Under the pieces are notes generated by a model that had not been told where the DNA came from, did not search any database, and saw only the letters and a list, made by a program, of their open reading frames with translations. Shown in pieces: positions 1 to 9,885 of a stretch of DNA of 10,657 nt (its first letter is position 1; each line of letters begins with the position of its first letter). The stretch covers positions 8,669 through 19,325 of the forward strand of contig PKZK01000253.1 in assembly GCA_003133025.1 (NCBI GenBank), in the 5' to 3' direction. Source of the stretch: Vulcanimicrobiota bacterium (lineage in GTDB: Bacteria > Vulcanimicrobiota > Vulcanimicrobiia > Vulcanimicrobiales > Vulcanimicrobiaceae). The translations under genes and the position numbers were made by a program.

Positions 1-482
1 GTGAAGTCGAAGAACGGGCCGCTCGTGACCTTGACCCGGTCGCCCTTGGCGAAGTCGATCTTGAGCTTGGGCGTTTCGATGCCCATCTGCTTGAGGATCG
101 TCTTGACTTCTTTGTCTTGCAACGGCACCGGTTTCTCGCCGGAGCCGGGCGAACCGACGAAGCCCGTCACGCCCGAGGTGTTGCGCACGACGTACCAAGA
201 CGAGTCGTCCATGTCCATCTCGACGAGGACGTAGCCCGGGAAGACCTTCTTGGGCGTGATCTTACGCTTGCCGTCTTTGAACTCGACTTCGTCTTCCATC
301 GGGACGAGCACGCGGAAAATCTTGTCCTGCATGTTCATCGAGTGGATGCGCCGCTCGAGGTTGGCCTTGACCTTGTTCTCGTAGCCCGAGTAGGTGTGGA
401 TCACAAACCACTTGCGGCGGTCTTCTTTGCGACCGCCGGCGGGTGCGACCGCGACCGTAGCCTGCTGCGTTTCCTCTTCCAA
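1..482 (-). CDS. nusG: Transcription termination/antitermination factor NusG (3' end runs off the window)
   Basis: Manual translation from TTG at 482: (M)EEETQQATVAVAPAGGRKEDRRKWFVIHTYSGYENKVKANLERR...KKVFPGYVLVEM...WYVVRNTSGVTGFVG...FAKGDRVKVTSGPFFDF (NGN domain plus start of KOW). AAGGGA SD-like motif upstream. Follows secE. Absent from the ORF track because it is partial. Confidence 0.98.
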   Translation of the reverse strand, partial: MEEETQQATVAVAPAGGRKEDRRKWFVIHTYSGYENKVKANLERRIHSMNMQDKIFRVLVPMEDEVEFKDGKRKITPKKVFPGYVLVEMDMDDSSWYVVRNTSGVTGFVGSPGSGEKPVPLQDKEVKTILKQMGIETPKLKIDFAKGDRVKVTSGPFFDF

Positions 483-492
483 AACCGGTCCC

Positions 493-768
493 TTACTTAT
501 GGATCCAGCCGAAGATCAGCCCGAACAATTGATCGACCAGATAGGTGTACAACCCGATCACGACGACCAGCGCGATCGTCAGGATCGTGGCCGAGACCCA
601 CTCCTGCCGGCTCGGCCACGTGACGCGACGCATCTCCGAGACGAGCCCGCGCAGAAAAGCCTCGGCACGCGCGGAGCGCGCGGCCCGATCGGCCGTCTGG
701 CGCGGAGCCGGGCGCGGCGGGTTACCCGGCGGCTTCGCCGTGGTGCCTCCTCCGGTCGGCCTGTTCAT
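493..768 (-). CDS. secE: Preprotein translocase subunit SecE
   Basis: FLRGLVSEMRRVTWPSRQE motif followed by one TM helix (ATILTIALVVVIGLYTYLVDQLF); canonical position between tRNA-Trp and nusG. Confidence 0.97.
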   Translation of the reverse strand: MNRPTGGGTTAKPPGNPPRPAPRQTADRAARSARAEAFLRGLVSEMRRVTWPSRQEWVSATILTIALVVVIGLYTYLVDQLFGLIFGWIHK

Positions 769-789
769 GCTCGTCTGATGCTCCTTTGA

Positions 790-810
790 AGGCCGCGCCC
801 GGCGCGGCCT
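790..810. other. Perfect GC-rich inverted repeat between tRNA-Trp and secE
   Basis: aggccgcgcc-c-ggcgcggcct. No long U-tract, so more likely a processing or stabilising hairpin than a terminator. Confidence 0.5.
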
Positions 811-823
811 GAGGTCGTGAACT

Positions 824-899
824 TGGCAGGGCGGACAGGACTCGAACCTGCAACCGACGGTTTTGGAGACCGCAACTCTACCAATTGAGCTACCGCCCT
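824..899 (-). tRNA. tRNA-Trp (CCA)
   Basis: AGGGCGGTAGCTCAATTGGTAGAGTTGCGGTCTCCAAAACCGTCGGTTGCAGGTTCGAGTCCTGTCCGCCCTGCCA: 76 nt cloverleaf, anticodon CCA, encoded 3' CCA. Confidence 0.98.
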
Positions 900-911
900 A
901 TACCCGCGAAG

Positions 912-1076
912 CTACTTCGTTTCGCGGTGTGAACGATGACACCGGCAGAAGCGGCAATACTTGTCCAGCTCCAGTCGCTCGGTGGTGTGCTGCTTGTTCT
1001 TCTGCGTGTTGTAGTTCCGCCGCTTGCATTCGGTGCAAGCCAGGACGACCGTGACACGCTGTTCCTTCTTCGCCAT
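912..1076 (-). CDS. rpmG: 50S ribosomal protein L33 (zinc-ribbon, C+ type), 54 aa
   Basis: [54 protein letters not shown], with two CxxC pairs. True start is ATG 1076 (SD GGGGA); the ORF track over-extends it to 1256. Confidence 0.98.
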
Positions 1077-2319: not shown

Positions 2320-2327
2320 ACAGATCG

Positions 2328-2401
2328 TGCGCCCGGGCCGATTCGAACGGCCAACCTGAGGCTTAGGAGTCCCCCGCTCTATCCGTTTGAGCTACGGGCG
2401 C
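2328..2401 (-). tRNA. tRNA-Arg (CCT), CCA not encoded
   Basis: GCGCCCGTAGCTCAAACGGATAGAGCGGGGGACTCCTAAGCCTCAGGTTGGCCGTTCGAATCGGCCCGGGCGCA: perfect acceptor and T stems, A20, anticodon loop CTCCTAA; followed by CGA. Confidence 0.93.
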
Positions 2402-4748: not shown

Positions 4749-6041
4749 CTACAGCTTCAGCGAGAAGACCGTGCCGTACCCGTCGTAGCCGCCGCCGAAC
4801 GTCGTTCCGTAGAGTGCGCCCGACTTCTCGAAGAGGCCGGAATACGGATTTGCCTCTGCGGGAAAGCCGGTGAAGCTGGCCAGGATCGTCTCGGCGAAGC
4901 CCTTGTGTCGCTTGCTGAGTTCGTAAATGGTGCCCGCGCCGTACGCACCGCCGCCGAACGTCGTGCCGAACAGCTTGCCGCCCCGGTAGAGCACCGGCGC
5001 ACCGTACGGCGCCGTTCCGTCACCACTCCCCGAGGCTCCGAAAGCGTAAAGCACCTGCTCGACGTACGGCTTCTTCGCCGCGTCGACGCGAAACACGGTA
5101 CCGCTGTTCCCCGAACCGCCGCCAACCGTCGTCCCGAAGAGATCTCCGTTCGCCGCTTCGACCAGGGAGCTATACGGATTTGCGCCGTCGGTGCCGCCTG
5201 CAAAATTGTGCAGCACGCTCTCGACGTACGTCGTCCCGCTGGGAGTCAGCGCGTAGACCACACCGTCGTTCTCCGATCCGCCGAACGTCGCGGTTCCGTA
5301 CAGAACGCCGCCGCTCGAGGGCAGAACCGCACCGTAGGGCGTCGCTCCGTCACTCGAGCCGCTAAAGCTGTAGAGCACGGACTCGACGACGCCGTTGGCA
5401 CCCTGCGTCAACGAGAAAACCGTTCCCGCACCGAACGTGCCTCCGTAGAGCGTCGTGCCGTAAAGCGTTCCGGCGGCATCTTCGCTCAGCCCTGCATACG
5501 GATTTGCACCGTCGTTCGGCGAGCCTTCGAAACTGTAAACCACGCTCTCGGTGTAGTGCGACCCCGACGGCGTTAGCGCGAAGACGCAGCCCGCACCAAA
5601 GGCTCCGCCGCTGTACGTCGTGCCGTACAGCACGCCGCCTTTTCCGAGGAGAAGGCTGCCGTACGGCAACGCGCCGTCGGTCGTGCCGCCTTTGAAGGCG
5701 TAGAGCGGCCGTTCCGCATAGCCCGGCCCGCTGCGATTCAACTCGAACGCGGTGCCTTGGTCCGCCGGGCCGCCGTCATTGGTCGTTCCGTACAGGCGCC
5801 CCGATGACCCCGCGATCAGCGGAGCGTACGGATAGCCTCCGTCGCTGCTGCCCCCCTGGAAATTGTAGAGCAGGGTGGGCCCGGAGACGGCCGGAGTGAC
5901 GAACGGGGCCGCCGGAGAGCTTAAGCCCCTAACCAACGGCAACCCCGCGGCGTGCGCGCTCGCGCTCGCGGCGAACGGCGCCGCGGCGAACGCAACCAGC
6001 GAGAGAACGCGAAAGGGAACCAAGATCGAAGTGCACTGCAT
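4749..6041 (-). CDS. Secreted tandem-repeat protein (GloVer / TIGR03803-type repeats), 7 repeats
   Basis: Seven ~55 aa repeats LYxF.G..DGA.PY..L.....G.LYGTT..GG....GTVF.L after a signal peptide (RVLSLVAFAAAPFAASASAHA). ATG 6041 preferred; ATG 6080 is an alternative. Confidence 0.88.
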   Translation of the reverse strand: MQCTSILVPFRVLSLVAFAAAPFAASASAHAAGLPLVRGLSSPAAPFVTPAVSGPTLLYNFQGGSSDGGYPYAPLIAGSSGRLYGTTNDGGPADQGTAFELNRSGPGYAERPLYAFKGGTTDGALPYGSLLLGKGGVLYGTTYSGGAFGAGCVFALTPSGSHYTESVVYSFEGSPNDGANPYAGLSEDAAGTLYGTTLYGGTFGAGTVFSLTQGANGVVESVLYSFSGSSDGATPYGAVLPSSGGVLYGTATFGGSENDGVVYALTPSGTTYVESVLHNFAGGTDGANPYSSLVEAANGDLFGTTVGGGSGNSGTVFRVDAAKKPYVEQVLYAFGASGSGDGTAPYGAPVLYRGGKLFGTTFGGGAYGAGTIYELSKRHKGFAETILASFTGFPAEANPYSGLFEKSGALYGTTFGGGYDGYGTVFSLKL

Positions 6042-6173
6042 CTTGCTCACGAGGCGCTCGTTAGCTGCCTCAACGCCCATGACCTCGGTCGGTGTTGAAA
6101 ACCTGACGATTAAGAAGGTTATGAACCGGACGGAGCGCGCGCTCTGGTTATTTGTGCCTAGACCTCGCCGTCC

Positions 6174-6764
6174 CTAATCGCAAAGGCCTATTTGGAAGAC
6201 GCAGGCCCGCGCGCCTTCGGCCTGACAGGCGACCTCCTCGACGCGATAACCGGGGTCGACGAGCGTGCGAAACAGATGCTCGAACGTCGCCGCGTAGTAT
6301 TCGCACGCCGGTTGTTTTACGCGCGCGTTCCGGCAGATGGGGCAGCCCGCGAGCGAGATGCTCGCAGGCGCGCTAAAGCGCATCCGGATCTGCGCGCTGC
6401 CTGCGAAGGTCCAGGCGTTGGCTCTGATCGCGAGCATAAGGCCGCGCAATCCCAGCGGCCGCGGCAGCGCGGGCAGCAGACCTTGCGCGACGCTCGGAAT
6501 ACGATGTGTGAGTACGTACTTCGCCGTGCGCAAACCGGCGTCGCGGGTAATCGACCTCGCGGCTTCGCGCTCGAGCCGCTCGCGCAACGTCTCGTACAGC
6601 GCGGTGACCTCGGCCTCGGGCACCATCTCGCGCGGCAAGTCGCGCTCGTACTTGTTGAGCGCGCAGGCCTGCAAAATACCCGCCACCTCATCCTCGGCTA
6701 GACGCGCGCGAAGGGCCTCTACCGTTCGCACGATCGCGTTGGGTCCGATGAGAGCGGAGCGCAG
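6174..6764 (-). CDS. bchJ: BchJ (annotated as bacteriochlorophyll 4-vinyl reductase; V4R domain)
   Basis: IGPNAI near the N-terminus, MVPEAEV, AGLRTAKYVLTHRIP, AIRANAWTFAGS, CPIC, ACEYYAATFEHLFRTLV, EVACQAEGARACVF. The frame is open upstream of GTG 6731 to CTG 6764, which has SD AAGGTG 7 nt upstream. Confidence 0.92.
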   Translation of the reverse strand: MRSALIGPNAIVRTVEALRARLAEDEVAGILQACALNKYERDLPREMVPEAEVTALYETLRERLEREAARSITRDAGLRTAKYVLTHRIPSVAQGLLPALPRPLGLRGLMLAIRANAWTFAGSAQIRMRFSAPASISLAGCPICRNARVKQPACEYYAATFEHLFRTLVDPGYRVEEVACQAEGARACVFQIGLCD

Positions 6765-6768
6765 CGTC

Positions 6769-7034
6769 TTACACCTTCGTCAAGTCGATATCGATGCCCG
6801 AGGGATCGCCCCCCATCTTCTCAGCGATCTGGGCCGTATCCCGCGGCGGCGACGATCCGGGCGGCGCCGCTCGCGTCCGGCTCGCTACCGTGGACCCGCG
6901 GGCCGCGAATTCCTCGCAGAGGGCGACGAACTTCTTGCGCTTGATCGTCGCGCACGAGCGTCGCTATCTCGTCGAACGACTTCTCGATCTCTGCGCCGCC
7001 GGCATCGTAGTCGAATCATAACGCTCCGCAACAT
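6769..7034 (-). pseudogene. bchE: Heavily deleted, frameshifted bchE remnant (anaerobic Mg-protoporphyrin IX monomethyl ester cyclase)
   Basis: Three collinear pieces in different frames: MLRSVMI (7034-7014), DYDAGGAEI+EKSFDEIATLVRD (7012-6947), TIKRKKFVALCEEFAARG...IDLTKV* (6948-6769). They resemble recalled BchE motifs MRIxMIxPNYHSGGAEI, VVDEIExLVRD and EEPTINRKKFxxxCEExxARG. The stop lies 4 bp before bchJ. Confidence 0.8.
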
Positions 7035-7153
7035 CGGCCGAGGCTAACGCTCCGATTTGTGCTCGGCGTGAGAATCGCTCGCTTGCAATGCGCGCGCGGC
7101 GCGCCGGCTCCGCAGCGTCGTCACAAGAGAACGTCGCCGCTCGGGCGAACGTC

Positions 7154-8515
7154 ATGGCGATCCGACGAACTTCCGTCCGCTCGGCAGCCGCTTTCGCGCT
7201 AGCGATGAGCGCCGCCGCGCTCGAGTCGGGATGCGGAGGGAGCAGCGTCAATCCGGGAGGCCCCGGCCAGCCTGCTCCGGCCGCGAAGATTCTCCACGTG
7301 ATCGTTATCGTTCAAGAAAATCGCACGCCCGACAACCTTTTCCACGGCTTGCCCAACGCCGACACGAGTCCGTCGAGCGGCCTCGATTCGCAAGGCCAAC
7401 AGGTGCAGTTGCTGCCGGTCGATCTGCAAGAGGGTTTCGATCTCGATCATCGCCACGAGGGCTTCACCTACGAATGGGACGGCGGCAAACTCGACGGCTG
7501 GAATCTCGAACCGGCGATGCCGTGCTCCGGCACGTGTCCGCCCGCGGCGCAACGCCCGTACATGTACGTGCCGCAGAACCAAGTGCAGCCCTATTGGGAC
7601 CTAGCCGAGCAGTACGTTTTCGCCGATCGCATGTTCCAGAGCAACCGCGGCCCGAGCTTCCCCGCGCACCAGTACATCATCGGCGGCAACGCTTTGGCGG
7701 CTCCGGCCGACACGCCGTACGTCATCGCGGATAACCCGTCGGTGCCCGGCCAGGGCGCGCAGACGGGCGGCTGCAACTCGCCCGCGGGTACGCTCGTGGA
7801 GTTGCTCGACCCTACGAGCGGCAACGTCGAGCAATCGGTCTATCCGTGCTTCGATCACCCCGTGCTGATGGATCTGCTCGACGCAAAGAAAATCTCGTGG
7901 CGCTATTACCAGGCGGGCGCCGCACCCTCGCCCGGACTCTGGGCGCTCGACGCGATCCAGCACATCGTCGACGGACCCGACGTGGCGAACATCAGCGCGC
8001 CGAGTTCGAACATCCTGAACGACATTGCCTCGGGCAACCTCGCCTCGGTCTCGTGGGTCACGCCCACCGGCATCGACTCCGATCACCCGGGCGACGGTGG
8101 CGCCGGCCCGTCCTGGGTCGCTTCGATCGTCAATGCCGCCGGCGCGAGCGCCTATTGGAACTCGACGGCGGTCATCGTCACGTGGGACGACTGGGGCGGG
8201 TGGTACGATCACGTGCCGCCGCCGACGCGCAACGCCAACGAACTCGGCTTCCGCGTGCCTCTGCTGGTCGTGTCGCCGTACGCCAAGAGCGGCTACGTCT
8301 CACACGTGCAGTACGAATTCAGCAGCATTTTGAAGTTCATTGAAGAACAGTTCGACCTGGGCAGCTTGGGCACGACCGACGCCTTGGCCAACGATCTCGG
8401 CGACTGTTTCGACTTCAGCCAAAAACCTCGCCCTTATACGCAGATTCAAAGCCGCTATGCACGGAGTTATTTCATGAGAATTCCCCCCAGCAATCGCCCG
8501 GTCGATCCCGAATGA
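7154..8515 (+). CDS. Phosphoesterase family (phospholipase C / acid phosphatase, PF04185-type) probable lipoprotein, paralog 1
   Basis: HVIVIVQENRTPDNLF, GPSFPAHQY, SDHP, WDDWGGWYDHVPPP, LGFRVPLLVVSPYAK, EFSSILKFIE. The signal peptide from ATG 7154 ends in SGC. The ORF-track start at 7088 is probably too far upstream. Confidence 0.92.
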   Translation: MAIRRTSVRSAAAFALAMSAAALESGCGGSSVNPGGPGQPAPAAKILHVIVIVQENRTPDNLFHGLPNADTSPSSGLDSQGQQVQLLPVDLQEGFDLDHRHEGFTYEWDGGKLDGWNLEPAMPCSGTCPPAAQRPYMYVPQNQVQPYWDLAEQYVFADRMFQSNRGPSFPAHQYIIGGNALAAPADTPYVIADNPSVPGQGAQTGGCNSPAGTLVELLDPTSGNVEQSVYPCFDHPVLMDLLDAKKISWRYYQAGAAPSPGLWALDAIQHIVDGPDVANISAPSSNILNDIASGNLASVSWVTPTGIDSDHPGDGGAGPSWVASIVNAAGASAYWNSTAVIVTWDDWGGWYDHVPPPTRNANELGFRVPLLVVSPYAKSGYVSHVQYEFSSILKFIEEQFDLGSLGTTDALANDLGDCFDFSQKPRPYTQIQSRYARSYFMRIPPSNRPVDPE

Positions 8516-9885
8516 CGCGCCGCTTCGAACGCGTGCTGCGCCCCCTTGCCGCCGGCGCATGCCTGGCGTGGCTGTCGGGCTGCAGCGGCGGCGGTGGCGG
8601 ATCGTCGCCCGCGCCCGCCGGCCCAACGACCGCGCCGACCTCGGCGCCGCAGTCGAAGATCCAGCACGTCATCATCATCTTCCAAGAGAACCGGTCGCCG
8701 GACAACCTCTTCCACGGCTTGCCCAACGCCGACACGAGTCCGCAATACGGTCTCAACTCGCTCGGCCGGCAAGTGCCGTTGCAACCCATCGATCTCGAGG
8801 TAGCCTTCGACCTGGATCACAGCCACGAGGGCTTCGGGTACGAGTGGGACGGCGGAAAACTCGACGGCTGGAATCTCGAGCCGCCGAGCGCGTGCAAACG
8901 GCTCCAGTGCCCGCCCGGGGCTCAGCGTCCATACATGTACGTGCCCGAGAGCCAGGTGCAACCGTATTTCGATCTCGCCGAGCAGTACGTGTTTGCCGAC
9001 CGCATGTTCCAGACCAACCGCGGGCCGAGCTTCGCGGCGCATCAGTACATCATCTCGGGCACGGCGGTAGCCACGCCCGACTATTCGCCCTACGTCATCG
9101 AAGACAACCCGAGCAACGGCGACGTCGCGCCGCCCGGTGGCTGCAATTCCGTCGCGAACACGCTGGTGCCGTTGATGGATCCGGTGACGGGCGCGATCGA
9201 ACAATCCGTCTATCCGTGCTTCGACCATCCGGTGCTGATGGATCTGCTCGATGCCAAGCATATCTCGTGGCGCTACTATCAGCCGCAGACGCCGCCGGCG
9301 CCCGGCCTGTGGACGCTCGATGCGATCAAGCACATCGTCGACGGTCCCGACCTCGCCGATATCAGCGCACCGTCCACCAATATTCTGAGCGACATCGGCG
9401 GCGGCACGCTGCCCGCCGTCTCTTGGGTCATCCCCAACGATTCGGAATCCGATCATCCCGAAGGCGGCGACAAGGGGCCGTCGTGGGTTGCCTCGATCGC
9501 GAACGCCGCCGGTTCGAGCCAGTATTGGAACTCGACCGCGATCGTCGTCTTGTGGGACGACTGGGGCGGCTGGTACGATCACGTGCAGCCGCCGACGCGC
9601 AACGCCGAGGAACTGGGCTTTCGCGTGCCGCTGATCGTCATCTCGCCGTACGCGAAGACCGGCTACGTCTCGCACGTGCAATACGAATTCGGCAGCATCC
9701 TGAAGTTCGTGGAAGAGCAATTCGGTTTGAGCAGTCTGGGCTATACCGACCTGACCGCAAACGATCTCGCCGACTGCTTCAATTTTGGCCAGGCCCCGCG
9801 CACCTACAAGCAGATCCAAAGCCTTTACTCACGCTCGTATTTCATGCACCAGCCGCGGGACGTGCGGCCGATCGACAGCTACTGA
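8512..9885 (+). CDS. Phosphoesterase family lipoprotein, paralog 2
   Basis: Same motifs (QENRSPDNLF, GPSFAAHQY, SDHP, WDDWGGWYDHV, LGFRVP); lipobox LSGC; ATGA overlap with paralog 1. Confidence 0.93.
   Translation: MTRRFERVLRPLAAGACLAWLSGCSGGGGGSSPAPAGPTTAPTSAPQSKIQHVIIIFQENRSPDNLFHGLPNADTSPQYGLNSLGRQVPLQPIDLEVAFDLDHSHEGFGYEWDGGKLDGWNLEPPSACKRLQCPPGAQRPYMYVPESQVQPYFDLAEQYVFADRMFQTNRGPSFAAHQYIISGTAVATPDYSPYVIEDNPSNGDVAPPGGCNSVANTLVPLMDPVTGAIEQSVYPCFDHPVLMDLLDAKHISWRYYQPQTPPAPGLWTLDAIKHIVDGPDLADISAPSTNILSDIGGGTLPAVSWVIPNDSESDHPEGGDKGPSWVASIANAAGSSQYWNSTAIVVLWDDWGGWYDHVQPPTRNAEELGFRVPLIVISPYAKTGYVSHVQYEFGSILKFVEEQFGLSSLGYTDLTANDLADCFNFGQAPRTYKQIQSLYSRSYFMHQPRDVRPIDSY

Follow-up and report, generated by a model that had tools for sequence, protein, structure and literature searches.

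Directly upstream of bchJ, minus-strand positions 7031–6887 of the window (the whole 10,657-nucleotide stretch of DNA analysed, C31:8669–19325 of the G000 assembly) are, judged by sequence, a remnant of bchE that reads as a non-functional pseudogene trimmed by at least four deletions. According to the accessible portions of PMC7242693 and PMC3931815, the BchE cyclase requires cobalamin and works independently of oxygen, and the AcsF cyclase depends on oxygen. We found the pseudogene in a species that has retained acsF and, apparently, reaction-centre genes, where bacteriochlorophyll is quite probably made through the oxygen-dependent AcsF cyclase alone. The species has thus apparently, and likely, turned into an oxygen-requiring phototroph rather than abandoning the use of light.

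Identity and deletions of the bchE remnant

On the minus strand from 7034 to 6769, the peptides MLRSVMI, DYDAGGAEI, FDEIATLVRD and TIKRKKFVALCEEFAARG follow one another in order and across three frames, just as the original prediction had described: MLRSVMI begins at an ATG at 7034, DYDAGGAEI and FDEIATLVRD lie in the same second frame, TIKRKKFVALCEEFAARG occupies the third, and a TAA at 6771–6769 closes the stretch four bases ahead of the CTG (6764) that opens bchJ. The reference for the comparison was a nucleotide profile made from 11 full bchE genes of 10 family genomes, with long deletions permitted in the alignment. The remnant matched this profile collinearly with 102 bits, whereas 400 windows drawn at random from the G000 genome averaged 26 bits and reached at most 47.5, and 100 shuffles at most 29, which bears out the predicted bchE fossil upstream of bchJ and the collinear set of BchE matches that had been expected of it. 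Moreover, with a bchE gene as DNA query across 21 genomes, the remnant site gave the best match (E 5.2e-9).

The secure bchE sequence (7031–6887) amounts to ~145 bases out of a 1662-base gene and matches residues 1–18, 226–238 and 251–272 of BchE in order. All pieces are on the minus strand. Piece 1a (7013–7034, with the profile match at 7031–7013; 15.6 bits) covers codons 1–7 of the start region, encodes MLRSVMI and is followed by a 5-base deletion, while piece 1b (6985–7012; 30.2 bits) covers codons 9–18, shares 25 of 27 bases with the bchE of G014 and reads DYDAGGAEI where relatives have NYHAGGAEI. Piece 2 (6947–6984; 32.2 bits) corresponds to codons 226–238 and agrees with the bchE of G081 at 27 of 29 bases; piece 3 (6887–6950; 54.5 bits) corresponds to codons 251–272, with 15 of 21 positions identical by tblastn. 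By eye, the pieces are closer to family-type BchE (FVDEI, AR-L-V) than to the proteobacterial type of the outgroup loci.

The remnant shows four deletions, one of 5 bases, one of ~624, one of 41 and, past codon 272, one of roughly 850 bases, of which last at most 118 tail bases could be left. The ~624-base deletion joins pieces 1b and 2 and has removed residues 18–225; as had been predicted, the B12-binding domain (residues 11–132 by Pfam in G014, of which those up to 18 remain) and the CxxxCxxC motif (~residues 204–211) went with it. The remnant also lacks a continuous frame of about 530–600 aa and, with domain, motif and frame all lost, this copy of bchE is non-functional. The 41-base deletion joins pieces 2 and 3, where a 4-base overlap (6950–6947) fits both sides in several relatives, and the ~624-base junction has an imperfect overlap only. 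We considered end joining as the mechanism and rejected it, because one clear 4-base overlap in three mapped junctions does not favour it over ordinary deletion. A Ku gene is present in G000 at C141:3864–4391.

The whole 266 bp had originally been read as bchE, and this holds for 7031–6887 but not for the remaining 118 bases (6769–6886, minus strand, ending in TAA). This tail is possibly a decayed bchE 3′ end: it lies where such an end would be expected, as the bchE stop of relatives adjoins the start of bchJ, and its AQIAE resembles residues 492–497. At the protein level, its match to BchE was not above chance, with 61 of 300 random stretches scoring equally high, and its assignment to the BchE C-terminus or to codons 305–343, for which the profile gave 7–14 bits, was discarded.

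Elsewhere in the window, two tandem genes for secreted phospholipase C/acid phosphatase-like proteins, below NCBIfam cut-offs, occupy 7088–9885 on the plus strand (an ARAGORN tRNA-Cys at 7740–7828, inside the first of them, is probably false), and a choice-of-anchor GloVer tandem-repeat protein with seven repeats is encoded just downstream of bchJ (4749–6080, minus strand). Farther off are an oxygenase-like gene with no NCBIfam match (1309–2319), after which comes a tRNA-Arg (2327–2401, minus strand), and an ordinary cluster of rpmG, tRNA-Trp, secE and, to judge by its sequence, nusG (3–1061, minus strand). A search of 5900–7300 found no sigma-70-like promoter, a result that is uninformative.

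bchE and bchJ in the family, and the state of bchJ

In tallies that are not tests, given the incompleteness of many genomes and the non-independence of related ones, acsF was present in 31 of 348 family genomes searched, bchE over cut-off in 10 and bchJ in 11. A family-model search of the 31 acsF genomes assigned bchJ to the same 10 bchE genomes and to G000, and to none of the other 20, G000 being the only one of the 31 with bchJ but without bchE. In six of the 10 bchE genomes, bchE is followed immediately, on the same strand, by bchJ, which is the arrangement seen at the remnant. An AhbC/NirJ1-like radical SAM gene (below family cut-offs) occurs in eight of these 10 genomes versus none of the 21 others, G000 included, and together with an AhbD-like partner (TIGR04053, over cut-off) it flanks bchE or bchJ, the pair being seen at L041:1598–3867 (G014), L044, L045, L114, L115 and L117–L120. 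The pair travels with bchE and bchJ, and a role in anaerobic tetrapyrrole synthesis is putative. Neither radical SAM gene was found in G000, and the sequence upstream of the fossil showed no trace of them. Among the matches listed for the bchE DNA query in the 20 other acsF-only genomes there were short single hits only and no collinear set, the best of those listed having an E of 4e-6 over 45 bases.

In the AcsF tree (29 rows; G081 and G036 omitted as partial), G000 grouped with G004, G082, G029 and G087, all of them bchE-bearing (support 92/83). In the RpoB tree (23 rows; seven of 30 genomes omitted as absent or partial), it fell inside an 11-genome clade (100/99) whose other members comprise five with bchE and five without, with no internal resolution. 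These placements are consistent with a loss of bchE in the lineage of G000 itself.

The adjoining bchJ (6174–6764, minus strand) stays open over 196 codons, encodes a V4R domain (PF02830) and scores 174 bits with TIGR02019 against a cut-off of 74.3. It may nevertheless be a pseudogene of recent origin, deprived of its start codon and due to go the way of bchE, a reading compatible with the explanation we prefer for bchE and one to which we give serious weight, if rather less than even. The frame has no ATG, GTG or TTG ahead of the conserved IGPNAI, only the CTG at 6764, and a TTG and a GTG stand one base out of frame where the bchJ of relatives starts. Moreover, of 146 family-invariant positions, 13 are changed in bchJ (8.9%), more than in any other family member (0.7–6.4%) and similar to the 7 of 75 of the remnant; no terminal branch of the BchJ tree is as long as its own; and all 20 other bchE-less acsF genomes are also without bchJ.

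Set against this reading, there is no stop or indel over the 196 codons, and the CTG is preceded, seven bases upstream, by a ribosome-binding-like AAGGTG, so that a candidate start is on hand. The gene retains 37 of 39 broadly conserved residues, of which 25 other aligned BchJ proteins lose 0–4, an outcome with p ~0.02 if bchJ were decaying at the rate of the remnant and 0.10 at a lower assumed rate. In addition, four of its five strain variants are synonymous (p ~0.018). We lean, without great assurance, towards a bchJ that may still be functional; that selection has held it since bchE was destroyed is a more tentative suggestion, which we would not bet on. If it were true, the species would be a natural experiment in which BchJ works without BchE, for instance as a porphyrin carrier for BchH/BchM or AcsF. 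In the available portions of PMC7242693 and PMC3931815, BchJ appears as a possible chaperone or carrier, a role that is unverified. A contig scan with BchJ as query returned only non-family loci, at 36–45% identity, and G208 bchJ was dropped as a candidate second pseudogene, as its flagged stop lies beyond the aligned part, which has none.

Cyclase genes, phototrophy and the reliability of the assembly

If the remnant were a decayed duplicate, an intact bchE could sit in the unassembled fifth of the genome and the anaerobic cyclase would be kept. The G000 assembly is indeed only 80% complete, in 265 contigs; G324 has bchE twice in full, and in G014 there is a second copy that is split; and some metagenome contigs with an intact bchE over 6910–6950 are near the depth of the species (for example, X12 record 6, at 4.47 compared with 4.15–4.99). 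These contigs, however, differ by 3–5 letters in ~40 and others are at a far different depth (41.6), as expected of other phototrophs in the samples. Furthermore, no bchE over the family cut-off (TIGR02026) was found in the 80%-complete assembly, where the sole match reached 42 bits; the radical SAM partner, present in eight of 10 bchE genomes, was not found in G000 either; and the copy that decayed is the very one adjoining bchJ. We thus regard a second, intact bchE as unlikely. The second copy in G014 (C13:122151–123640; L154, L155) lies in three frames, as a decaying duplicate or through assembly frameshifts.

The original prediction had left two outcomes, reliance on AcsF or the loss of phototrophy altogether, and it is the first that our data support. 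A species giving up phototrophy, with bchE as one among several decaying genes, was first suggested to us by a stop in acsF together with missing puf genes, and was overturned by contigs from metagenome runs and by a further contig, L113. In G000, acsF (TIGR02029, 291 bits) has a TAA at codon 47 (C92:13970; L027:1600, L067:666). In X1, X3 and X9, which are all three of the runs that cover the site and come from three studies (X6 being without cover), C92:13970 reads C at full depth and the codon is Gln, so the stop is either erroneous or an allele private to this assembly or strain, and acsF is intact in the population.

As for the other genes, searches of the 80%-complete assembly yielded no pufLMC, pufA, bchF, bchC, bchXYZ or canonical bchH, bchD or bchI. 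Contig C163 stops at the end of crtB and C45 just beyond the bchNBGP block, exactly where relatives G023 and G004 carry the missing puf and bch genes. When JGI metagenomes were scanned with an exact pattern, a single contig, L113, came up. It shares 99.3% identity with C163 across ~7 kb, then crosses an inverted repeat and goes on to pufB, pufA and 257 open codons of pufL, where it ends; pufBAL on L113 are the only reaction-centre/LH1 genes recovered, with pufM and pufC not seen there. The repeat, between crtB and pufB (L113:7174–7499), is a nested inverted one whose 84-base arms are 90% alike, has related copies on G000 contig C243 and probably broke the G000 assembly at crtB. PufL of L113 is 96% identical to a 20-member PufL cluster whose full length is 272 aa, and has an 80% match labelled Vulcanimicrobiaceae. 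Together with the gene order, this label suggests that G000 belongs to Eremiobacterota. Moreover, bchL (91% identical to that of a relative), bchN, bchB, bchG, bchP, crtP and crtB of G000 have no stops, and neither do the assembled parts of bchM and of a second set of chelatase subunits.

In the genome screen proposed with the original prediction, acsF was present, no intact bchE was found, and pufLM, canonical bchHDI and bchXYZ were not recovered from the incomplete assembly. With acsF intact in the population, bchLNB, bchG and bchP open and pufBAL on L113, the loss of phototrophy is contradicted, and we consider it very improbable that the species is on its way there. This assembly alone, with its stop in acsF and without puf genes, would have wrongly pointed to a lapsed phototroph. 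Matches of hemN type were below cut-off in five of five genomes tested and are uninformative. Among side observations, G000 has a RuBisCO large subunit gene, split by an N gap, and G004 (C1:2583258–2613520) and G029 (C5:93713–121809) each carry pufLM in two copies.

Regarding the assembly itself, the N gaps of G000 number 411; those of two bases interrupt rbcL (C199:2790), rpoB (C23:1900) and bchM (C92:13303) and can mimic pseudogenes, and private letters also occur at window positions 7162, 7180 and 7273. The stretch was wholly or partly present in 20 public runs from 16 studies, with at least half of its words in 15, nearly all of which are peat, moss or permafrost metagenomes; five RNA runs contain 5–11% of its words and were not taken as evidence of expression. 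For four runs, from four studies, contigs were aligned to the window. One contig each in X2 (5900–7369) and X4 (5984–7364) covers the remnant from end to end, and one each in X9 (6832–7372) and X12 (6902–7369) covers most of it, with no joint listed in any of them. The same short form on independent contigs of four studies shows that the remnant is not a misassembly, a check that the original prediction had called for. Hence, although the assembly has its many N gaps and, in acsF, one private error at the least, a collapsed intact bchE is scarcely credible, and so is chance similarity, given a score far beyond both nulls.

These contigs also bear on the decay. Within the remnant, X9 carries five substitutions and two one-base gaps, some nearer to the family state and others further from it; these seven differences per ~203 remnant bases compare with two per ~560 bchJ bases (rough binomial p 0.002). 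Such strain differences match what unconstrained decay would produce.

Course of the loss and comparison with known systems

We propose that an ancestor of G000 would have held the cassette of its relatives, with two AhbD/AhbC-like radical SAM genes, bchE and bchJ. With life in an oxic habitat, at the peat surface or in moss, the need for the B12-dependent BchE may have lapsed, and ordinary bacterial deletion bias could then have worn the gene away, at least one deletion probably occurring via a short direct repeat. Ring E would since be closed only with oxygen. The weakest step of this proposal is that some selection probably still maintains bchJ, whose product would carry porphyrins for earlier steps of the pathway. 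What the remnant adds, modestly, is the direction of change for one Eremiobacterota lineage, along with a lone bchJ that may outlive bchE: the two genes, which otherwise co-occur in all 10 bchE-bearing family genomes, have parted here. The remnant would mark a step from facultatively anaerobic to aerobic anoxygenic phototroph in a little-studied phylum.

Compared with bchE of family relatives (TIGR02026), the three retained pieces are alike, with up to 93% DNA identity over 27–40 bases to the genes of G014, G029, G081 and others, and so is the location directly upstream of bchJ, as in six of the 10 family genomes. Unlike those genes, the remnant represents ~9% of the coding sequence and has no B12-binding domain, CxxxCxxC motif or continuous frame.

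Among phototrophic Eremiobacterota, the available portions of PMC9758169 and PMC6664022 report acsF in all or nearly all, and bchE as well in some genera, about half of the genomes then known: Vulcanimicrobium alpinus, 'Ca. Baltobacter' and 'Ca. Hesperobacter' have acsF only, and 'Ca. Velthaea' and 'Ca. Hemerobacter' carry bchE as well. Whereas those accounts, as far as available, give the presence or absence of bchE, G000 displays an intermediate state and hence a direction. The patchy distribution of bchE in these phototrophs could stem from gains by transfer or from losses, and PMC6664022, in its accessible part, favours horizontal transfer for the spread of phototrophy inside the phylum; for one lineage that had both cyclases, the remnant decides in favour of loss. 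The accessible parts of PMC10008586 and PMC5553392 describe no bchE remnant, and a full-text literature search, with subscription papers mostly outside its reach, returned no paper on one in this phylum.

Finally, according to the available portion of PMC12654162, aerobic anoxygenic phototrophs are mostly without bchEJ, a loss hypothesized to reflect little benefit in oxic settings. G000 resembles them in retaining acsF and having lost bchE, and differs from them in that the loss is seen here as a remnant and bchJ is still an open frame. G000 is an intermediate, caught in the act, of the known trend of bchEJ loss in aerobic phototrophs.
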